Below are positions 1 to 51,277 of a stretch of DNA of 64,000 nucleotides, one piece after another. A model generated the notes under the pieces. The model was not told the DNA's origin, did not search any database, and saw only the letters and a program-made list of their open reading frames with translations. The position numbers and the translations under genes were made by a program. Origin of the DNA: Firmicutes bacterium CAG:321_26_22 (lineage in GTDB: Bacteria > Bacillota_I > Bacilli_A > RF39 > UBA660); assembly GCA_001916775.1 (NCBI GenBank), contig MNTB01000034.1, forward strand, positions 3,478 through 67,477. Reading direction: 5' to 3'. The stretch's first letter is position 1. Each line of letters opens with the position of its first letter.

Positions 1-588
1 TAATAAATTTCTTTCTTTTAGAACATTTTTTAAAGTATTAAATACTTCCGAACCCATTCTTAGGTTTTCATGGTATTCTTCTTTATTTGGTACTATCATA
101 AATTCTTGGAAGTCTAGATTATTACTAGCATGAACTCCGCCATTTAAGATATTCATCATACATTTTGGCATACCGTATTCTTTTCCTAAGTATTCATATA
201 ATTCTAAACCTTTATATTTAGCAGCAGCTTTTAGATTAGCTAGTGAAACTCCTAATATGGCATTAGCTCCTAGTACTTCTTTGTTTTCAGTACCATCTTT
301 TTCTAACATGATTCTATCTATTTCTTCTTGATTTAATGAATCTTTTCCTATTAATAATGGTTTTATAATATTATTAACATTGTTTATGGCTTTTAATACA
401 CCTTTACCATGATATCTATTTTTATCATTATCCCTTAGTTCTAATGCTTCATTCTTACCAGTAGATGCTCCACTTGGTACTGATGCTACTGCTTTTATTC
501 CTGATTCTAGTGTTAATTCTACTTCTACGGTAGGATTGCCTCTGGAATCTAATATTTCTCTTGCATATATATTTTTTATTTTACTCAT
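1..588 (-). CDS. eno: enolase (phosphopyruvate hydratase), N-terminal part; gene continues beyond window start
   Basis: Manual translation of the reverse strand gives [25 protein letters not shown]...[14 protein letters not shown]..., the canonical enolase N-terminus. GGAGG RBS upstream of ATG at 586-588. Confidence 0.85.
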
Positions 589-2589: not shown

Positions 2590-2667
2590 TCCTTACTATT
2601 ATAATAATACCAAATTATTAGTAGTTTTTCAAGTATTTTTATATGTTTAATTTAAATTTTTATACCT

Positions 2668-2722
2668 TTCATGAAATGCCTAAGTCATTTCATGTCATTA
2701 CTAGCCTATTCTATAGTCTAGT
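2668..2722. repeat. dispersed intergenic element, type 'CATGAAATG hairpin + CTAGCCT..AGTCTA hairpin' (copy 1 of 3)
   Basis: ttcatgaaatgcctaagtcatttcatgtc...ctagcctattctatagtctag. Near-identical architecture at 27180 and 51192. Confidence 0.6.
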
Positions 2723-2851
2723 AATGAATAACTATAAGATATTATATTCATGGTGAAATACTTTCTAACTTAGATAATTCCAAATAAAAAGAAAGATAAC
2801 TAGTATCTTTATAGTTAGAATATCTTGGTAATATTTTATATAATTTTTTTA

Positions 2852-27114: not shown

Positions 27115-27179
27115 ATCTATTCTCCTCTATAATAATAATATAACATAAAATTATAAAAAAATAAATATATTTTATTTTC

Positions 27180-27262
27180 TTTCATGAAATGCCAAGGTCA
27201 TTTCATGTCTTCTCTAGCCTTATGTTAAGTCTACAGAAGATGTCTCAGTAGACCTATCATAT
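27180..27262. repeat. dispersed intergenic element (CATGAAATG hairpin + CTAGCCTTATGTTAAGTCTAC + GACCTATCATAT), copy 2 of 3
   Basis: ttcatgaaatgccaaggtcatttcatgtc..ctagccttatgttaagtcta..gtagacctatcatat. Confidence 0.6.
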
Positions 27263-29581: not shown

Positions 29582-30667
29582 TTATAGTCTCCAATTGTCA
29601 TTGTTTGGTATATTTTGATTTCCTGTAAAAGGCATTCCATTTTGATTATTCATTTGATTTGAAAAGTTTTGATTAGGCTGCATATTTATATTTGGAATAC
29701 TATTATTCATATTAGGATTAATATTAGGTACTTGTTCCATATTTGGTGTTGGCATTCCTTGATTTACATTTTCCATCATTGGATTTACATTTTGTACTTC
29801 TTGATTTGGTGTTACAGGAATATTTGGTTGAATATTATTATATGTAGGTATATTATTTTCAACCGGTTGTGCACTATTTATTTGTGGGCCAAAACTATTC
29901 ATATTATTTACTTGTGCTTGATTTGTTTCAGGTAATGGCATATTGTTTTGTGGCATTGCTGGTTGTACATTACTATTTAATCCATTATTTAACATCTCAT
30001 TTGGGTTAATGTTATTATTCATTACTTGTGATACTTCTGGTATTGGATTTTGAATAGCAGGAGTTGGTTCTACTACTGGAGTTGGTATATTTGGAGTTAC
30101 TCCTACCATATTATTATTCATATTACTATTTGAATTATTCATAATTGGTGTACTTTGTACTGGTTTTGGTTCAAATGTTGGTGTTTGACTTGATAGTGGA
30201 TTAAAGAAACTATCATTATTTTCATTAGTGTTGGTGGTATTATTTAAACCATTTGGTACACTAGTAACCTCTGGATTTGATGGCATACTATTCATATTAT
30301 TCATCATATTATTATCGATGTTTTGGTTATCCATCATATTATTAAATTGATTGTTCATCATGTTGTTATTCATACTTTGATTATCCATCATGTTATTGAA
30401 TTGATTATTCATCATATTATTATTCATGTTTTGATTAAACATATTATTAGTATTTGGATTATTTATATCAAAATTATTTGGATTCATATTATTCATACCA
30501 TTCATGTTATTTTGATTAACATTGTTGTCTTCAGCGTTAACTTTTGCTCTCATTTTTTTCTTTTTCTTAGTATCTACTAAAAAACCAACTACTGTAATGA
30601 GTAAAATTACTATTACAACTAAAAACCAAATATAATATTCTAACAAAAAATCTACTACTGTTTGCAT
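29582..30667 (-). CDS. hypothetical N-terminally membrane-anchored Asn/Met/Gln-rich low-complexity (prion-like) protein with internal repeats
   Basis: N-terminal TM, poly-K, then N/M/Q/P-rich sequence with repeated NNQFNNMMDNQ.. units encoded by a ~54-bp tandem DNA repeat at 30331-30438. Confidence 0.4.
   Translation of the reverse strand: MQTVVDFLLEYYIWFLVVIVILLITVVGFLVDTKKKKKMRAKVNAEDNNVNQNNMNGMNNMNPNNFDINNPNTNNMFNQNMNNNMMNNQFNNMMDNQSMNNNMMNNQFNNMMDNQNIDNNMMNNMNSMPSNPEVTSVPNGLNNTTNTNENNDSFFNPLSSQTPTFEPKPVQSTPIMNNSNSNMNNNMVGVTPNIPTPVVEPTPAIQNPIPEVSQVMNNNINPNEMLNNGLNSNVQPAMPQNNMPLPETNQAQVNNMNSFGPQINSAQPVENNIPTYNNIQPNIPVTPNQEVQNVNPMMENVNQGMPTPNMEQVPNINPNMNNSIPNINMQPNQNFSNQMNNQNGMPFTGNQNIPNNDNWRL
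30331..30438. repeat. ~54-bp imperfect tandem repeat x2 inside the N/M-rich ORF
   Basis: ccatcatattattaaattgattgttcatcatgttgttattcatactttgattat / ccatcatgttattgaattgattattcatcatattattattcatgttttgatta. Confidence 0.6.
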
Positions 30668-30733: not shown

Positions 30734-32437
30734 TTAAAATTTTTCTGCAATATTTTTATCTATAAAACTTAAACTTTTAACTGATAAGTCTAGTGATTCT
30801 TTATATTTTCCTCTTTTGAATAACTCTTCTGCTTTATTAAGGGCTATATCTATTTCCTCATAACTACTTCTATAACGATTACCATAAATTATAATTTTTT
30901 CAGACATACTAGCAATCTTAATCATATCATTAGTCTTATTATATATTTTAAAAACCAAATCTCTAGCAGTATCTACCCTTATATTAAGTATCTTAATAAC
31001 AATTGGTTTTCTATCTAATTCCTTAATAATTTCTCTAATAGCATCTTGAGCCTCAGTAAGTTCAATATAATAACTACTAGGTATTACTGGTATTTTATAA
31101 TCTTTTAGTCTATATTTAGCTTTCTTAAGTAAGTTTTCAATCGTAGCAAGCTGTTCTCTTGCTCTTGTTTCATCATCTTTCATACTAGTAATTGATCTAA
31201 GTTGAAAATCCAAATCATCTTGTAATCTAGATAACTTAAGTGATAAACCATTTAATTCATCTACTAATTTAGAATAAGCAAATGTTTTCATTTTACCCTG
31301 ATCAACTAATATTTTATAATCTTGATTAATTTTTTCTAAATTCTTATTAAGAATACTAAATTTATTAATATCTTCATCAGATAAATTATAATTATATTTA
31401 ATATCATCTATCTGAAGATAAATATCTCTAACAACTTTATTAATATTATCTATCTTATAACTAAAATCTTTAATATTTTGTCTAAATAAATCCTTACATT
31501 CTTTTTCTTTATCAAAATCATTATATAATTCATTAAAATATTCAATAAAAGTTTTTAATTCTATTATAGATTCTCCTAATTCTAATTTCTTTAAATTTTC
31601 CATAATATTATCTATCTTATTTTTTATTTCTTTAATATTATATTCAACATTTAAATAATCAAGTGGATAACCATCTCTTTTCATACGATAATAGTAGGTT
31701 ATAGCTTCATCAATTTTATTTGGTACTAATACAGTAGCCATTAATACTATTGTAGGAATATCTTCAAGTAATTTACCTAATTTAGTTATTTTATCATCAA
31801 GTAAATTTATTTTCTTCTCTACTGATACATAATCATTATTATCCATAGCTTTCTCAAACTTAGCAAATAAATCATCAATATTATCTATTTCTTTTTCTAA
31901 ATAATCCGCTATTACACCATATTCTTTTTTTGATCTTTCAAATTTATTTTGATCTTCACGATATACTATTTTTAATTTAGTAATAAGAGCTCTATTTCTT
32001 TCTTCTGAATTAGTAATTAATTTAACTTCTTCAAGTAAATGATCTGTTTTCTTTTTCAAAGAATTTATTTCTATTTCAATATTTGTAATCTTTTTAACTG
32101 CTTGTTTATAATCTTTTCTATCAATCAAAAAATCAGCTTCTGATATTAAATCAGTAAGTTCAGGTATCTTTTCATCTCTAATTGTAGTAAAAGTATTATC
32201 CCAATCATCTAATTTATTTTTTAAATTATCTGTTTTTATAAGTTCTTTAACTTTAGTTATTTCACTAAGTACAGGTACTCCTATTAAATTATTTTTTCTT
32301 ATATCTAGTTCTTCTATTTCCTTTTTATACTTCTTATTCTGATTTCTTTTTATAATAACAATCGTAACTATAATAAGTATTACAGCCAATATAAAGGCAG
32401 ATATTGTAATTAAAAGAACACTATCCATTAATATCAC
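30734..32437 (-). CDS. ezrA: septation ring formation regulator EzrA
   Basis: Single N-terminal TM followed by a ~540-aa coiled-coil/spectrin-like region; the 567-aa size and architecture are typical of EzrA. Confidence 0.8.
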   Translation of the reverse strand: MILMDSVLLITISAFILAVILIIVTIVIIKRNQNKKYKKEIEELDIRKNNLIGVPVLSEITKVKELIKTDNLKNKLDDWDNTFTTIRDEKIPELTDLISEADFLIDRKDYKQAVKKITNIEIEINSLKKKTDHLLEEVKLITNSEERNRALITKLKIVYREDQNKFERSKKEYGVIADYLEKEIDNIDDLFAKFEKAMDNNDYVSVEKKINLLDDKITKLGKLLEDIPTIVLMATVLVPNKIDEAITYYYRMKRDGYPLDYLNVEYNIKEIKNKIDNIMENLKKLELGESIIELKTFIEYFNELYNDFDKEKECKDLFRQNIKDFSYKIDNINKVVRDIYLQIDDIKYNYNLSDEDINKFSILNKNLEKINQDYKILVDQGKMKTFAYSKLVDELNGLSLKLSRLQDDLDFQLRSITSMKDDETRAREQLATIENLLKKAKYRLKDYKIPVIPSSYYIELTEAQDAIREIIKELDRKPIVIKILNIRVDTARDLVFKIYNKTNDMIKIASMSEKIIIYGNRYRSSYEEIDIALNKAEELFKRGKYKESLDLSVKSLSFIDKNIAEKF

Positions 32438-32579
32438 CTTTCCTACTCATAATATATTCTACCACATTTTTTTATATTTTAAAATTGTTTTTGTAATAAA
32501 AATATTTTTTTTTAAAAAGTGTATATAAAAATCAAATATAAATATTGATATTTTTATAACTTTTTAGTATAATGTATAC

Positions 32580-32682
32580 AGGAAGAGAAATTTATCCATA
32601 ATAAAAATGGGTAACACCTAGTTCCAAAAGGTGTTCTCTCCGTAAGTAGATTACGAAGCACCCCCCTGTGGTGCTTCTTTTG
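32580..32682 (+). ncRNA. candidate type I antitoxin sRNA (convergent to and overlapping the 3' UTR of the small toxin ORF)
   Basis: Promoter TTGATA (32545-32550) - 17 nt - TATAAT (32568-32573). Hairpins AACACC..GGUGUU and CGUAA..UUACG, and terminator GAAGCACC-CCCCUGU-GGUGCUUC-UUUUG ending 2 nt before the toxin stop codon. No ORF. Confidence 0.4.
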
Positions 32683-32683
32683 T

Positions 32684-32761
32684 CTATTTTCTATGCATCA
32701 TATTGCCTATATAGACAATAGTGATAAGAGTAATCCAAGCAAATGCAAGGACTAGTTCCAT
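32684..32761 (-). CDS. candidate type I toxin: 25-aa hydrophobic peptide MELVLAFAWITLITIVYIGNMMHRK
   Basis: GGAGG RBS 9 nt upstream of the ATG. Single predicted TM helix plus a basic C-terminus. Own promoter TTGACT (rc 32903-32908) - 17 nt - TACAAT (rc 32880-32885) with a ~110-nt 5' UTR. 3' UTR fully antisense to the plus-strand sRNA. Confidence 0.4.
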   Translation of the reverse strand: MELVLAFAWITLITIVYIGNMMHRK

Positions 32762-33043
32762 TACTCAAACCTCCAACCCCCTAAGAAGTAAAAAAGTTCT
32801 TTCATCATAGACGTCACCCCTTTCTCTTAGGAATACTAAGAAATTGGAGAGAATACACCATGTAAGTGTTACCTAAATAATTGTACTATAGTTTCACTTA
32901 ATAGTCAATATAATATGGCTATTTATTTTTATTTTATATATACATACAAATGTATATATTACTATCATAAGAAAGGCATTAGACTTTCTTATGATATAAA
33001 AGACCTATAAGAACTTATAACAAAAAACAAGATAAACCTTAGG

Positions 33044-34333
33044 TTATCTTGTCCATTCAAATTCAAAATCAAATATTCTAACAATATCCCCATCTTGAAT
33101 ACCCATTTTTTCTAATTCTTCATCAATACCCATTCTTCTAAGTTTATTAGAGAATCTCTCATATGCTTCTTCAGTATTAAAGTTAGTCATTCTAAATAGT
33201 TTTTCAACAGCATCACCTTTAATAACATAAACATCTTTATCCTTAATAATAGTAAAAGGTTTTTCTTTCTTAAATTTATATAAAACATGACTTTCTACTA
33301 CTTCATCATCATATAAATTAGTATCTTCAATAGATTTAGTAAGTTCAGATAATTTATTAATAACTTCATCTAAACCTTCATTAATTAAAGCAGTAACTTC
33401 AAAGATATTTTTATTTTTAATCTTCTTTTTAAATTCTTCTAAATTCTCTTTAGCCTTATCTCCATCCATCTTATTAGCTATAATAATCTCTTCTTTAGTT
33501 AAAAGTTTAGGACTAAAAGATTCTAATTCTTTTCTAATAGCAACATAATCATCATAAGGATCTCTACCTTCAGTACCAGCCATATCTATAACATGAGCAA
33601 TTATCTTAGTTCTCTCAACATGTTTTAAAAATTTATGTCCTAAACCTACTCCTTCACTAGCTCCTTCAATTAAACCAGGAAGATCCGCTACTACGAAAGT
33701 ATTGTCTTTAGTCTTAACTACTCCTAGATTAGGAGATAAAGTAGTAAAATGATAGTCTGCTATTTTAGGATTAGCATTAGATATCATAGAAAGAATAGTA
33801 CTCTTACCAACCGAAGGCATACCAACTAGTCCAACATCTGCAATCATACGAAGCTCAACTTTAATATTTCTAACTTCACCAGGTTCTCCATTCTCGGCAT
33901 ACGATGGACAAGGATTATTACGAGAAGATAAACTTACATTACCTCTACCTCCTCTACCACCATAAGCAATCGTAGCCATTTCACCATTTCTAGTAAGATC
34001 CGCTATTACAACACCAGTATCAGCATCTTTAACCGTAGTTCCAACTGGTACTTTTACTATTAAATCTTCACTATTACTACCATATTTATTTTTACCTTCA
34101 CCATTTTCCCCATTATTTCCTTTTATTTTCTTTTGATATCTTAAATCTATTAATGTTTTTAATCCTTCATCAGCTTTAAAGATAATGTCAGCTCCTTTAC
34201 CACCATTACCTCCAAATGGTCCCCCCATTGGTACACAAGCTTCTCTTCTATAAGCCATACAACCATTGCCACCATTTCCAGCTTGAACATTAATTAATAC
34301 CTCATCTACAAACATATTATCATCTTCCTTCAT
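33044..34333 (-). CDS. obg: GTPase Obg
   Basis: Obg-fold N-terminus MFVDEV.I.VQAGNGGNGC..YRRE..VP.GGP.GG.GG.G plus G-domain motifs; the likely true start is the internal MFVDE. Confidence 0.9.
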   Translation of the reverse strand: MKEDDNMFVDEVLINVQAGNGGNGCMAYRREACVPMGGPFGGNGGKGADIIFKADEGLKTLIDLRYQKKIKGNNGENGEGKNKYGSNSEDLIVKVPVGTTVKDADTGVVIADLTRNGEMATIAYGGRGGRGNVSLSSRNNPCPSYAENGEPGEVRNIKVELRMIADVGLVGMPSVGKSTILSMISNANPKIADYHFTTLSPNLGVVKTKDNTFVVADLPGLIEGASEGVGLGHKFLKHVERTKIIAHVIDMAGTEGRDPYDDYVAIRKELESFSPKLLTKEEIIIANKMDGDKAKENLEEFKKKIKNKNIFEVTALINEGLDEVINKLSELTKSIEDTNLYDDEVVESHVLYKFKKEKPFTIIKDKDVYVIKGDAVEKLFRMTNFNTEEAYERFSNKLRRMGIDEELEKMGIQDGDIVRIFDFEFEWTR

Positions 34334-34407
34334 ACTTAACTTTGAATATTACTACTAGTACTAATATAATTATTAAAGCTATATAAATACCACTTACCCA
34401 TAATATT

Positions 34408-36723
34408 CTAAGATAATTTATTTTCTTTTTTTCTTTTTTCATTTTTTACCTCTTTTATCTTTATTATTATTTTATCAAATAATTCACTTAAAAAATCAAT
34501 TATATAAGTATCAACAAAGGCAAGTAACAAAATAAAAACAATACTTACTATACCAAATTTTGAAACTAAAAACAAGTCAGGAAGCAAAATTAATAGTTCA
34601 AAAAAGGAAATTGTACAAAATATTAGTAATATTTTACGCCATAAATTAAGTGGTTTACATATTGTATATAAAAGTCTCAACGTAATAAAACCAGTTAATG
34701 TTACTACTACTAAACGATAATTCTCAAAGTTTTTATTAAATATTGTACAAAACATTATTATAATAAAGATATTTAACACAACAGTTATTCCATTAGGCAC
34801 AGCATTTCTAAATACTTTAGCAATAAAATCTTTATCTACTTTATTATAATTAGGTTCTAAAGCTAAAAAGAATGACGGTATACCTACACATACTGAACTA
34901 ATTAAGGATAATTGAATTGGATAAAAAGGATATTCATGAGATAATCCAATTGATAAAAGACATAGCAAAAATGAATATGTTGTCTTTATTAAATACATTG
35001 AAGCTACTCTCTCAATATTATTTACTACTCTTCTACCTTCATTAACAATACTAGGAAGAACACTAAAGTCATCAGTTTTTAAAACAACATCAGATACACT
35101 TCTAGCAGCACTCACTCCACTACCAAGAGCAATACCACAGTCAGCCTCTTTTAAAGCAAGAATATCATTAACACCATCTCCTATCATACCAACAGTATTA
35201 TTTTCTTTCAAAGCCTTAATAACCATTTGTTTCTGCATAGGAGTCATTCTACCAAAGATTGTTTTCTCTTTAACTACTTCTACTAACTCATTATAATCTT
35301 TAGGTAAATCTTTTCCTTCGATATATCTATCATAGCCTTCAAAATCTAATTGTCTTAATATATTAGATACAGTACTAGGATTATCTCCAGATATTATTTT
35401 AATTTCTACTTGTTGTTCTTTAAAATAACGTAAAGTATCTCCAGCATTACTTCTAATATTATCTTTTATTACAATAAAACCAATTACTTCTAATTTATTC
35501 TTTTCTTTAGCTAAAGTAATTATTCTATAACCTTTCTTTACATACTTATCTAGTTCCGGATAATCACTAATACTCTTATCAGTAATATATTCTAAAGCAC
35601 CCAAATAATATTTAACTCCCTCAATTATAGTAATACTACACTTTTTAGCAGAACTAAATGGTATTCTATCTTCTACTTTTAAATTATCTTTAACACCAAA
35701 TTTATTCTTTAAAGCCTTATCAGTAGAATTATTAGCATCATTAGTATTAATATTAGCAATAATATCTTCAATATTATCTTTATCATTTAATTTAATTAAT
35801 TCTACTACTTCCATAGTACCATCAGTAATAGTACCAGTCTTATCTAAACATAATACATCAACACATGATAATATCTCTATACCATGTAACTTCTCTATAA
35901 TAACATTCTTTTTAGCCATCTTAACAACACCTGCCGTTAAAGCAATTGAAGTAAGAAGTACTAATCCCTCTGGTATCATACCAATAATACCCGCTACTGT
36001 CGATAAAATAGCTTCATTATAAGATTGTCCACTATAAAAATATTGACTAACAAATAATAGTATTCCCACTGGTACTATTAAAAAAGTAATTATCTTTAAT
36101 ATCTTATTAATAGTATTTTGTAAATATGAAGAATTATCTTTAATAGAAGTAGCCTCTTTAATTAAATTATTAGCATAATTATTCTTACCAACACTAATTA
36201 CTTTAGCATAAGCACTACCACTAGTAACTATTGAACCAGACATAATCTTATCATCTTTTCTCTTAATAATAGCATCAGATTCCCCAGTAATAACAGATTC
36301 ATCTACTTCTAAACTACTAGACTTCATAACAACCATATCTACTAATGCCGATTCACCACTAGTAAGATAAATAATATCATCCATAACAATCTTTTCTTTA
36401 GGTATCTCTATCTTTTTACCTTCTCTTACTACTGTTACAGTATCTTGATCTGTTACCTTTAATTTTTCTAATATTTTCTTTGATTTAAACTCTTGATATA
36501 TAGCAATAACCGTATTAAATATTACCGTACCAACAAACAAACAATTTTGAAGTGATCCAGTTGTTAATACTAACACTAATAAAGAAATATTTAATATATT
36601 AAATAGTGTTATAGTATTAGATAAAATTATTTGTTTAGTTGTTCTAGTATACTTAACTTTCTCCTCATTACTTAAACCATTATTCTCTCTATATTCTACT
36701 TCTTGTCTATTTAAACCTTCCAT
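34408..36723 (-). CDS. P-type (HAD superfamily) cation-transporting ATPase
   Basis: Phosphorylation motif CLDKTGTITDG and hinge GDGVNDILALKEADCGIALG, with 8-10 TM segments. Confidence 0.85.
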   Translation of the reverse strand: MEGLNRQEVEYRENNGLSNEEKVKYTRTTKQIILSNTITLFNILNISLLVLVLTTGSLQNCLFVGTVIFNTVIAIYQEFKSKKILEKLKVTDQDTVTVVREGKKIEIPKEKIVMDDIIYLTSGESALVDMVVMKSSSLEVDESVITGESDAIIKRKDDKIMSGSIVTSGSAYAKVISVGKNNYANNLIKEATSIKDNSSYLQNTINKILKIITFLIVPVGILLFVSQYFYSGQSYNEAILSTVAGIIGMIPEGLVLLTSIALTAGVVKMAKKNVIIEKLHGIEILSCVDVLCLDKTGTITDGTMEVVELIKLNDKDNIEDIIANINTNDANNSTDKALKNKFGVKDNLKVEDRIPFSSAKKCSITIIEGVKYYLGALEYITDKSISDYPELDKYVKKGYRIITLAKEKNKLEVIGFIVIKDNIRSNAGDTLRYFKEQQVEIKIISGDNPSTVSNILRQLDFEGYDRYIEGKDLPKDYNELVEVVKEKTIFGRMTPMQKQMVIKALKENNTVGMIGDGVNDILALKEADCGIALGSGVSAARSVSDVVLKTDDFSVLPSIVNEGRRVVNNIERVASMYLIKTTYSFLLCLLSIGLSHEYPFYPIQLSLISSVCVGIPSFFLALEPNYNKVDKDFIAKVFRNAVPNGITVVLNIFIIIMFCTIFNKNFENYRLVVVTLTGFITLRLLYTICKPLNLWRKILLIFCTISFFELLILLPDLFLVSKFGIVSIVFILLLAFVDTYIIDFLSELFDKIIIKIKEVKNEKRKKENKLS

Positions 36724-51109: not shown

Positions 51110-51191
51110 TTTACCACCTACTACAAAATATGTCTCATCTAGTTATAGTATAACAAAATATCAAAGTATTTACAATAACATTTATCACCTT

Positions 51192-51277
51192 CCATGAAAA
51201 TCCAAGGTATTTTCATGTCCAATCTAGCCTAATTCTTAGTCTATATTGGAGTCTCTTTGGACCTATCATATTCGCGG
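51192..51277. repeat. dispersed intergenic element (CATGAAAATCC hairpin + CTAGCCTAATTCTTAGTCTAT + GACCTATCATATTCGCGG), copy 3 of 3
   Basis: ccatgaaaatccaaggtattttcatgtcc..ctagcctaattcttagtctat..ggacctatcatattcgcgg. Confidence 0.6.

Follow-up and report, generated by a model that had tools for sequence, protein, structure and literature searches.

We found that positions 32528 to 32918 of the window, the 64,000-nucleotide stretch of DNA analysed here, probably hold a chromosomal type I toxin–antitoxin module, one of a previously unannotated family that appears restricted to one clade of uncultured Bacilli from the human gut and that would be a new, gut family among the Gram-positive type I systems with 3′-overlapping RNAs. 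The putative pair consists of a minus-strand gene for a 25-aa hydrophobic peptide and a plus-strand gene for an antisense sRNA overlapping the 3′ end of the peptide mRNA, a reading proposed in the first-pass annotation and now supported by comparison with related sequences. The flanking genes had been named as ezrA and obg, and both identities were confirmed by Pfam matches on the identical genes of metagenome contigs. Gene calling left this position empty on every metagenome contig, in agreement with the expectation that standard annotation would overlook it. The features of the module are the following.

32528–32918: polymorphic cassette of 391 bp, comprising the whole module including both inward-facing promoters
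32545–32573, plus strand: sRNA promoter, TTGATA-17-TATAAT, with 11 of 12 consensus positions
32580–32682, plus strand: candidate antisense sRNA of ~100 nt, fully complementary to the toxin 3′ UTR
32598–32609, minus strand: U-rich tract CATTTTTATTAT following the 3′ hairpin, where the toxin mRNA may end
32610–32641, minus strand: 3′ UTR motif GGAGAGAACACC-loop-GGTGTTACC, which pairs with the 5′ motif
32642–32654: small hairpin P4 of variable sequence, GTAAgtagaTTAC, separating the sRNA core from the terminator
32655–32681, plus strand: sRNA intrinsic terminator, GAAGCACC-loop-GGTGCTTC (hairpin 32655–32677) followed by TTTT
32684–32761, minus strand: toxin ORF of 25 aa, MELVLAFAWITLITIVYIGNMMHRK, a single hydrophobic helix with an acidic residue 2 and a basic tail
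32761–32820, minus strand: upstream ORF with its SD GGGGTGA (32814–32820) and ATGATG...TAA (32808–32761), 15 codons, MMKELFYFLGGWRFE and stop
32770–32781, minus strand: toxin ribosome-binding region GGGGGTTGGAGG, read from the sequence and conserved in the alignment
32846–32873, minus strand: 5′ motif GGTAACACTTACATGGTGTATTCTCTCC at the mRNA 5′ end, inverted repeats I18/I19
32908 to 32880, minus strand: toxin promoter, TTGACT-17-TACAAT, with a putative transcription start near 32873

The search of relatives for a peptide plus antisense arrangement, suggested as a check in the first-pass annotation, returned a conserved pair: 96 distinct near-full-length copies of the cassette were found in other genomes, and an nhmmer profile of the family matched the window at 32537–32912 (E 1e-103). 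A motif-pattern search gave 28 true matches, spread over about 12 related MAGs, one of which has at least nine copies, and the carriers are uncultured human-gut Bacilli MAGs labelled 'Tenericutes' or CAG-302-like. Tandem pairs and triplets with a spacing of ~480 bp were present. Copies stand at orthologous chromosomal sites across species, where they carry different toxin alleles, and paralogous copies have no common flanks beyond ~120 nt. The family is thus lineage-restricted, duplicated, partly in tandem and unannotated, as type I toxin–antitoxin loci often are (PMC2887945, PMC8594479). A blastn search and a motif scan of viral contigs gave no match to plasmids or phages, so a mobile-element origin is unsupported and a classical addiction role is not indicated. 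Several copies are decayed: the toxin is a pseudogene, the 5′ part is deleted, or the −10 box or SD is mutated, with the sRNA intact (L025, L033, L007, L053 and L152), a decay typical of toxin–antitoxin systems.

At the locus itself, the segment 32528–32918 is swapped for a 68-bp filler in metagenome contigs L001–L006, in which Obg is identical, and contigs L007 and L009 carry a diverged copy (79.6 % identity) with the 5′ part missing. Contigs that share this Obg have the cassette in present, absent or replaced form. The 'empty' allele was considered as an insertion site and rejected: the filler proved to be a different repeat and the unit keeps its upstream part, so the alleles look like replacement or deletion and not like a simple insertion. 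The region has a GC content of 0.385 at 32600–32799, against 0.17–0.23 in the flanks, and its promoter-like hexamers are not enriched (8 vs 6.7±2.7 in shuffles). Because every element is conserved in the 96 distinct copies elsewhere, the features of the cassette are not due to chance. The lack of hexamer enrichment, together with the multi-copy and polymorphic nature of the cassette, its tendency to break assemblies and its imperfect 49-nt inverted ends (inverted repeat I1), would also suit a non-coding MITE- or REP-like intergenic repeat whose ORF and hexamers are by-products of AT-richness. We regard that explanation as very improbable, since the toxin frame, start, SD spacing and stop are kept across 50 peptide variants, synonymous changes exceed non-synonymous ones and the RNA helices covary in a strand-specific manner. 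Moreover, the inverted ends simply coincide with the toxin and sRNA promoters, which face inward; the junction with the empty allele shows no target-site duplication, and the paralogues have no flanks in common beyond ~120 nt.

The first element of the proposed toxin–antitoxin pair, the minus-strand hydrophobic ORF with its basic tail, was present as described, and its frame and hydrophobic/basic profile are intact in 87 of the 96 copies, whose 50 distinct variants measure 24–27 aa. The pooled pN/pS was 0.53 and fell to ~0.3 among more diverged pairs. The strong ribosome-binding site noted earlier was located as GGAGG at 32770–32774, 8 nt 5′ of the toxin ATG, and the toxin promoter, of the sigma-A type, was likewise confirmed, a TTGACT-16..18-TAnnnT pattern being found in 73/96 copies, with the −10 box mutated in some. 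With an inferred mRNA of ~275 nt and an ORF of 25 aa, the gene resembles those of type I toxins, whose mRNAs measure 150–400 nt and encode hydrophobic, membrane-type peptides of 20–60 aa (PMC8594479). The peptide, a fusion of upstream ORF and toxin, and 17 peptides of the family were scanned against Pfam and NCBIfam; no relevant family came up, and neither Hok nor Fst was matched. A full-text literature search with four peptide strings returned no paper.

On the opposite strand, the sRNA promoter that had been read from the window was matched by a TTGnnn-16..18-TAnnnT pattern in 86/96 copies. The strong terminator described near the toxin stop was also recovered; it is the sole terminator-like site in the region (0.2 expected), ends 6–7 nt from the CTA of the toxin stop codon, and has its U tract templated by the last Lys/Arg codons of the toxin and the stop codon. 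Its hairpin occurs in nearly all copies, in a few (L037 and L027 among them) in weak or shortened form, and shows compensatory changes in outer and inner pairs. The conserved promoter and terminator point to a gene for an antisense RNA that is complementary to the toxin mRNA over an extended stretch, as expected of a type I system. The predicted fold of the sRNA is more stable than that of shuffled sequences (−36.6 vs −19.1±2.9 kcal/mol, z −6.0) and comprises helices P1 (32580–32589/32634–32641), P2 (32592–32599/32607–32614) and P3 (32615–32633), followed by P4, which varies in sequence among copies and is palindromic in many, and by the terminator. Most copies are predicted to form P2 and P3, and about three-quarters the whole three-helix core. 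P2 covaries (position 4: UG 45, CG 14, GC 26, AU 6, UA 1), and its frequent G·U pairs can form on the sRNA strand alone. MAFFT/RNAalifold recovered P2 and P3 only, because the terminator region was misaligned; the pairs of the terminator, P4 and P2 were therefore counted with anchored scripts.

Conservation is higher in the sRNA core than in the peptide, also in parts outside the search patterns, the first of which fixed the 3′ motif and the second part of the sRNA, which inflates the apparent conservation. The sRNA also contains a C/U-rich segment, of the kind used by Firmicute sRNAs for SD binding. We therefore weighed whether the structured sRNA might be the main product, acting as a trans-acting regulator or protein-binding RNA for which the peptide mRNA is only a cis target or sponge. 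Such a role would account for the high conservation, for the compact three-helix core with its C/U-rich segment and for the toxin-less copies L025 and L033, which keep the sRNA. It nevertheless appears improbable, since the sRNA core showed no excess complementarity over shuffles even to the 5′ translation-initiation region of its own mRNA (z −0.26), and Rfam at gathering thresholds reported only tRNA across the whole window. In addition, a pool of cross-reacting antitoxins with a co-evolving 5′ motif would be expected to show the same high conservation, and orphan antitoxins are common among toxin–antitoxin families. A trans pairing of the core with the initiation region, like that of Fst or SprA1, was rejected for the same lack of complementarity.

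The mRNA of the putative toxin carries a second reading frame. The upstream ORF, which had been overlooked in the first-pass annotation, spans the toxin SD and ends in TAATG, in which its stop codon and the toxin ATG overlap. Its SD and ATG are present in 93/96 copies, and its stop falls within −3 to +10 nt of the toxin start in 68 of the 86 copies measured; neither its peptide sequence nor its frame is conserved. At the other end of the transcript, a hairpin plus U-rich tract had been reported near 32600. The U tract at 32598–32609 was found and is nearly invariant in the family, and the terminator scan made no call there, owing to a hairpin loop of 9 nt and a spacer of 4 nt.

The complementarity between 5′ and 3′ UTR segments noticed in the first reading was confirmed for 32846–32873 and 32610–32641, so that the first 28 nt of the inferred ~275-nt transcript are complementary to its own 3′ UTR. 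The 5′ motif is also a sense-strand copy of the sRNA core, the plus strand at 32610–32641 being P3 plus the 3′ arm of P1, and the CUCUCC in the 5′ motif can double as an anti-SD. The predicted fold of the toxin mRNA is closed by this 5′–3′ helix (−87.9 vs −64.7±4.8 in shuffles, z −4.8), as are the minimum free energy structures of 17 out of 18 folded copies. RNAduplex energies between a copy's own 5′ and 3′ motifs averaged −31.7, against −11.7±3.3 for shuffles, and cognate partners paired better than those from other subfamilies (−32.4 vs −21.9; −33.5 vs −27.0). Of the motif cells, 91 % were paired, compared with 42–54 % with slid partners, and seven cells had changed on both sides (1.7±1.1 in shuffles), a number reached by none of 500 shuffles. 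The 5′ and 3′ motifs thus co-evolve, through few independent events and with two pairs changed on both sides. In terms of sequence, a 5′ motif that is complementary to the 3′ UTR is necessarily identical to the sRNA, so that the pairing cannot be told apart from a mimicry kept for another reason.

The effect of this pairing on translation was evaluated from predicted accessibilities. The toxin SD was buried in both modelled states, with an unpaired probability of 0.00–0.08 in the two subfamilies with enough data, including that of the window. The SD of the upstream ORF was more often unpaired in free than in sRNA-bound mRNA in subfamily B (0.51 vs 0.18, with 27 of 29 copies in that direction) and in the U-tail subfamily (0.34 vs 0.20), and no change was predicted on sRNA binding in the window's own subfamily (0.24 vs 0.22). 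These models suggest that in two of the three subfamilies the 5′–3′ pairing opens the upstream-ORF SD instead of occluding it. Accordingly, of the hok-like interaction that the first-pass annotation had envisaged, the long-range pairing and its mimicry by the sRNA were retained, while the predicted accessibilities in these two subfamilies argue against the occlusion of translation.

A harmless small membrane protein, such as a complex modulator or a stress peptide, tuned by a cis-antisense RNA would also be compatible with an ORF under moderate purifying selection, with stable orthologous chromosomal sites instead of plasmids or phages and with the lack of a toxin family match. We consider this unlikely, although less so than the other two alternatives, because a single-copy function leaves unexplained the at least nine paralogues per genome, the tandem arrays and the rapid diversification of the peptide, as well as the copies that lose the ORF or its promoter yet keep the sRNA. 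Furthermore, the buried SD, the upstream-ORF gate and the antisense RNA form three layers of repression, and such stacking is typical of genes with a dangerous product (PMC11228461).

For the type I toxin–antitoxin module that we favour, we propose the following mechanism. The peptide, once made, would damage the membrane. As the toxin SD is predicted to be always buried, translation would occur only by coupling to the upstream ORF, as with hok and mok. While transcription is under way, the 5′ CUCUCC(U)n anti-SD would pair with the upstream-ORF SD, keeping the nascent mRNA silent; in the finished mRNA, the 3′ UTR could capture the 5′ motif and loosen this lock. The sRNA, as a mimic of the mRNA 5′ end, would outcompete that end for the 3′ UTR and so restore the lock, and the resulting duplex of ~85 bp would be a substrate for RNase III and 3′ exonucleases. 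Since each genome holds many near-identical sRNA cores, these probably cross-protect against all copies. The proposed dual action would be that of bsrG/SR4, in which SR4, by binding at the 3′ end, extends the helix that sequesters the SD and also brings about decay by RNase III, and the degradation route would be that of txpA/RatA, another of the Gram-positive type I systems that overlap at their 3′ ends, with RatA working via RNase III (PMC4147584, PMC6562991).

If this reading is correct, an abundant and unannotated type I toxin–antitoxin-like family is added for a common uncultured lineage of the human gut, whose 25-aa genes are invisible to standard annotation and whose cassettes break metagenome assemblies. 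Neither a hok/mok-style coupling nor a 5′–3′ helix is known to have been described for Gram-positive 3′-overlap systems. The family would offer about 100 natural variants of one design, an upstream-ORF gate, a 5′–3′ helix and a 3′-end antisense RNA that mimics the 5′ end, and they would allow the effect of 3′-end binding on a remote ribosome-binding site to be studied.

Among the known systems, fst/RNAII (par, pAD1) shares with the gut family its convergent transcripts, small hydrophobic toxin and Gram-positive host. The analogy drawn to it in the first-pass annotation fails, however, because the par interaction takes place via 5′ direct repeats, whereas the gut sRNA has no extra complementarity to the 5′ region (z −0.26 as above) and the peptide no Fst match; in addition, the gut terminator hairpin is not common to both RNAs as a terminator, unlike that of fst/RNAII. 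In hok/mok/Sok of plasmid R1, toxin translation depends on an overlapping upstream frame, as is proposed for the gut family, and the two have in common an mRNA 5′–3′ pairing and several control layers of RNA structure (PMC4147584); the upstream ORF has a hok/mok-like geometry in the 93 gut copies mentioned above, with the toxin SD predicted to be buried. Sok binds the mok leader at the 5′ end, whereas the gut antisense RNA is located at the 3′ end, as a mimic of the 5′ end, and the gut 5′–3′ pairing is predicted to loosen the SD lock and not to tighten it as in hok. The gut peptide also stands outside the Hok family and its host is Gram-positive.

The likeness to txpA/RatA and bsrG/SR4 of Bacillus subtilis that had been pointed out was borne out, as the gut genes are convergent and their RNAs overlap at the 3′ ends. 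These systems also have the toxin SD in a G-C-rich helix and an antitoxin that binds far from it, and an SD lock of the bsrG/SR4 type, set by 3′-end binding, is predicted for two gut subfamilies. The B. subtilis toxins differ in being of 38–59 aa and located in prophage-like elements, no upstream ORF is described for either system (PMC6562991), and no sequence similarity to the gut family was detected.

In architecture, the gut family is the same as rli28-RatA/Hol-Tox (BsrH/TxpA-like toxins) of Listeria and Enterococcus plasmids (RF01492 and RF01776; PMC9484302). In permissive Rfam scans, rli28, RatA and SpF10 appeared below threshold and were kept as leads, not as memberships. The rli28 model (RF01492) was spanned in full on the toxin mRNA strand at 20.3 bits (E 4.6), below its gathering threshold of 45, a true member scoring 163 bits. 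RatA (RF01776) matched the 5′ end of the sRNA at 18.1–20.9 bits, over only the first ~23 model positions and below its threshold of 49, in three subfamilies and each time on the expected strand. A homology of the peptides is conjectural, given an hhalign profile–profile probability of 8.8 % between gut and Hol-Tox toxins; none of the 17 gut peptides matched Hol_Tox (PF16935), the family of TxpA, BsrG, BsrE and BsrH, at E≤10, while the control Listeria and Enterococcus toxins gave 1e-9. By eye, the two groups of toxins share the pattern E-(hydrophobic x16)-D-polar-basic. The gut toxins are shorter (24–27 aa) and without the N-terminal S-x-F/Y-E-A-L motif of Hol-Tox toxins, and the gut modules are chromosomal and of high copy number whereas rli28-RatA is plasmid-borne.

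In their organization, the two families agree in that the toxin mRNA and the sRNA converge and have overlapping 3′ ends, and in an sRNA terminator U tract templated by the C-terminal Lys/Arg codons of the toxin. Our comparison also revealed an upstream ORF and a 5′–3′ complementarity in the Listeria/Enterococcus plasmid loci, where rli28 is still listed as an sRNA. In loci L160–L163, the upstream ORF has 10–13 codons, starts at GGGGTGAT-N4-ATG, covers the toxin SD and stops 0–4 nt from the toxin start, its SD–ATG stretch being nearly identical to the GGAGTGATGCTATG of the gut family. Within the RatA overlap, the 3′ UTR of the rli28-RatA mRNA is complementary to the first 40 nt of the same transcript (z −4 to −8). 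We tentatively raise the possibility that upstream-ORF coupling and the 5′–3′ helix are ancestral to a Gram-positive superfamily of 3′-overlap type I systems, comprising rli28-RatA/Hol-Tox and the gut family, in which the antitoxin is a mimic of the 5′ end. If so, an antitoxin that takes the 3′ UTR would re-lock a ribosome-binding site ~200 nt upstream, in addition to causing decay.

The 606-bp gap between obg and ezrA holds a complete cassette, and the toxin ORF, ribosome-binding site, both promoters and plus-strand terminator claimed by the first-pass annotation were all located within it. The layout described there stood as regards these elements, although it had overlooked a 15-codon upstream ORF. 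The features are as follows.

33044–34333, minus strand: obg, flanking the gap
32908..32880, minus strand: putative toxin mRNA promoter, TTGACT-17-TACAAT (hexamer scan)
32761–32808, minus strand: upstream ORF of 15 codons, MMKELFYFLGGWRFE and stop, with SD GGGGTGA
32684–32761, minus strand: candidate toxin ORF, MELVLAFAWITLITIVYIGNMMHRK (ORF reading)
32655–32677, plus strand: putative sRNA terminator hairpin (terminator scan)
32545–32573, plus strand: putative sRNA promoter, TTGATA-17-TATAAT (hexamer scan)
30734–32437, minus strand: ezrA, flanking the gap

A GGAGG lies 8 nt 5′ of the toxin ATG, with which the TAA of the upstream ORF shares bases as TAATG in the window copy. The hairpin at 32655–32677 (plus strand) was the only terminator-like site in the region, against a chance expectation of 0.2, and promoter-like hexamers by themselves were not enriched there (8 vs 6.7±2.7). 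The cassette coincides with a GC island (0.385, compared with 0.17–0.23 in the flanks). Relative to shuffled sequences, fold z-scores were −6.0 for the putative sRNA and −4.8 for the putative toxin mRNA, whose MFE structure is closed by a 5′–3′ helix, in agreement with the long-range complementarity noted earlier. Two neighbouring ORFs were also recorded. One of 40 aa (MKKEKKKINYLRILWVSGIYIALIIILVLVVIFKVKYEGR, 34320–34442, minus strand) has a single transmembrane helix and shares bases with both the end of a P-type ATPase gene and the obg start; gene calling recovered it in 10 of 10 metagenome contigs, and no Pfam hit is recorded for it. The other, of 361 aa (29582–30667, minus strand), lies downstream of ezrA and has an N-terminal hydrophobic segment followed by a low-complexity region extremely rich in Asn, Met, Pro and Gln, with no Pfam family.

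To compare alleles at this site, we used human-gut metagenome contigs with exactly identical Obg protein, which formed two groups. In the first (L001–L006, L008 and L010), a 68-bp filler replaces window positions 32528–32918, while the second (L007 and L009) carries a cassette copy 79.6% identical to that of the window. The latter encodes a different 25-aa ORF, MDYVVALAMIIFFFIVYIDNRKNRR, with an unchanged RBS/TAATG junction, compensatory changes in the terminator hairpin and an almost identical 3′ motif (the toxin 3′ UTR segment at 32610–32641 in the window), and it lacks the 5′ UTR. Several metagenome contigs terminate within the locus, as expected of repeated or polymorphic sequence. The cassette is a discrete, variable unit. 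The filler of the 'empty' alleles (L001, 4415–4482) is a two-hairpin repeat (...CTAGTAATGACATGAAATGACCTAGGCATTTCATGAAAGG) without an Rfam match; three more copies occur in the window (2665–2731, 27179–27233 and 51188–51243), each preceding a gene on the minus strand (an unknown ORF of 226 aa, an RnfC-like and an NfeD-like gene, respectively), and it could represent a leader, an insulator or a further small repeat family.

A first search, scanning the 3′ motif against one genome per species, gave 28 true matches, spread over roughly twelve related MAGs and with at least nine copies in one genome. These MAGs go under the labels 'uncultured Tenericutes' or 'uncultured Bacilli', together with Clostridium sp. 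CAG:302; the 64-kb window contains a single copy. A second pattern run against metagenomes gave at least 120 loci, and most named samples among the matches listed were human gut. With nhmmer we recovered 113 near-full-length copies, 96 of them distinct; the homologous peptide-plus-antisense arrangements suggested for searching in relatives were indeed found. No cassette was found in the plasmids, phages and viral contigs searched. Flanking sequences place copies at orthologous chromosomal sites across species, with differing toxin alleles, and the flank common to paralogous copies extends only ~120 nt past the unit. Complete modules also occurred two or three in tandem, at a spacing of ~480 bp (L041, 7435–8415; L087, 3818–4810; L031, 3545–4380; L016, 4210–5834), with adjacent toxins identical or slightly different.

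The family alignments showed a common anatomy. Of the 96 copies, 73 show a recognisable toxin promoter pattern, and the mRNA start carries the 5′ motif (32846–32873 in the window). The upstream ORF follows, with its SD (GGAGTGA or GGGGTGA) and ATG in 93/96 copies; neither its peptide nor its frame is conserved across the family, of the 86 copies measured, 68 have the stop of this ORF −3 to +10 nt from the toxin start, and in about 15 copies it continues in the +1 frame. Next come a G-rich toxin SD and the toxin ORF of 24–27 aa (50 distinct sequences, intact in 87/96 copies, pooled pN/pS 0.53). The sRNA terminator, read on the opposite strand from an A-run plus a hairpin with compensatory changes, is followed by a short hairpin of variable sequence, after which comes the 3′ motif, and the sRNA promoter is recognisable in 86/96 copies. 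Decayed copies lacking the toxin ORF, its 5′ region, −10 box or SD retain the sRNA (L025, L033, L007, L053/L087 and L152-type). As a separate observation, the toxin −10 box is changed to TAGGAGAG or TAGGGGAG in L012, L037, L039, L017, L021, L152, L084 and L049, and in some of these the toxin SD is weakened as well (GGTGG) and the 5′ motif has a mismatch; with ORF and sRNA intact, these copies look silenced at the expression level.

In the putative sRNA, helices P2 and P3 and the terminator fold in most copies, and P1 closes the three-helix core in about three quarters. P2 covaries across the family, with U.G (45 copies), C-G (14), G-C (26), A-U (6) and U-A (1) at position 4, and C-G (58) and U.G (30) at position 5. 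On the other strand these common U.G pairs would become A.C mismatches, so P2 is selected on the plus (sRNA) strand, and this strand-specific pairing is the best in-silico evidence that the putative sRNA is a real structured transcript. The core (32579–32641, plus strand) also gave an end-to-end alignment to the Rfam model for the Streptococcus sRNA SpF10 (RF02427), whose three-helix layout it shares, but it scored just 19 bits where the gathering score is 60.

Pairing of each 5′ segment with its own 3′ motif gave a mean of −31.7 kcal/mol, compared with −11.7±3.3 for shuffles. In subfamily B (toxin MELVIAYALTILVTIA(V/L)IVLG(N/S)HRK, metagenome set), the 3′ change GGAGAGA to GAAGAGA is matched by 5′ UCUCUCC to UCUCUUC, and an extra U in 5′ GGUUAA stands opposite a C-to-G/A change in 3′ UUA(G/A)CC; L102 and L095 have A-to-G in the 5′ motif opposite U-to-C in the 3′ motif. 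Cognate combinations were more stable than non-cognate ones (−32.4 vs −21.9; −33.5 vs −27.0). In a formal count over 42 non-redundant copies, 91% of cells were paired, compared with 42–54% for slid partners, and both sides changed in seven cells against 1.7±1.1 in shuffles (0/500 reached seven), representing few independent events. That many C-to-U changes are tolerated opposite G argues for selection at the RNA level. The 5′-motif signal may reflect pairing with the 3′ UTR or identity to the sRNA, which covariation cannot separate.

We infer each step of the mechanism from these predictions. In the predictions, the toxin SD is paired nearly all the time (unpaired probability 0.00–0.08, 3′ UTR free or not, in the two subfamilies with enough data), so entry of toxin translation through the upstream ORF, as in mok and hok, is the likely route. 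At its CUCUCC(U)n end, the 5′ motif would have two alternative partners, the 3′ UTR and the SD of the upstream ORF. With the 3′ UTR blocked, as it would be by the sRNA, this SD was predicted to become less accessible in subfamily B (0.51 to 0.18; 27/29 copies) and in the U-tail subfamily (0.34 to 0.20), suggesting that sRNA occupancy would re-lock it in both; in the window's subfamily its accessibility was unchanged (0.24 free vs 0.22 blocked). Direct Fst- or SprA1-like pairing of the sRNA with the mRNA 5′ region was unsupported (z −0.26), and the fst/RNAII likeness drawn initially was dropped.

Among known systems, the re-locking predicted in these two subfamilies resembles the logic shown by experiment for bsrG/SR4, and RNase III-dependent decay of a 3′ duplex has been shown for txpA/RatA (PMC4147584, PMC6562991). 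In the reviews consulted, leader-peptide coupling is described only for E. coli hok and ldrD, and for none of the B. subtilis systems (PMC6562991). Pfam and NCBIfam models matched none of 17 family peptides, and no Rfam family reached threshold for the window cassette; the best sub-threshold hits were rli28 on the toxin mRNA strand (20.3 bits) and, in three subfamilies, RatA on the sRNA 5′ end (18–21 bits). The rli28 RNA of Listeria plasmids corresponds to the 5′ portion of a BsrH-like toxin mRNA facing RatA (PMC9484302). We compared such loci from Listeria innocua pLI100 (L160, 498–826; rli28 and RatA both at threshold), Enterococcus faecalis and E. mundtii plasmids (L161, L162) and an L. monocytogenes plasmid (L163). 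They carry an upstream ORF of 10–13 codons (SD GGGGTGAT-N4-ATG) with its stop 0–4 nt from the toxin start, and the first 40 nt of the mRNA are complementary to its own 3′ UTR within the RatA overlap (z −4 to −8); neither feature was found described in the literature reviewed, and rli28 continues to be listed as an sRNA. The toxins of these loci belong to Hol_Tox. The gut peptides do not, and comparing the gut toxins with Hol-Tox profile to profile gave a negative result (probability 8.8%). Membership of the gut family in the Hol-Tox, RatA or rli28 sequence families is not demonstrable. Taken together, comparative evidence supports the cassette as a candidate type I toxin–antitoxin locus, as originally proposed, with the upstream ORF added and Fst-like pairing removed. 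It is valuable chiefly because it is abundant in uncultured gut bacteria and offers a natural-variant series of one shared regulatory design, an upstream ORF plus a 5′–3′ helix. Judged by its sequence, the cassette family is a new family of a known kind, which would work like the Gram-positive 3′-overlap systems and may be distantly related to them.
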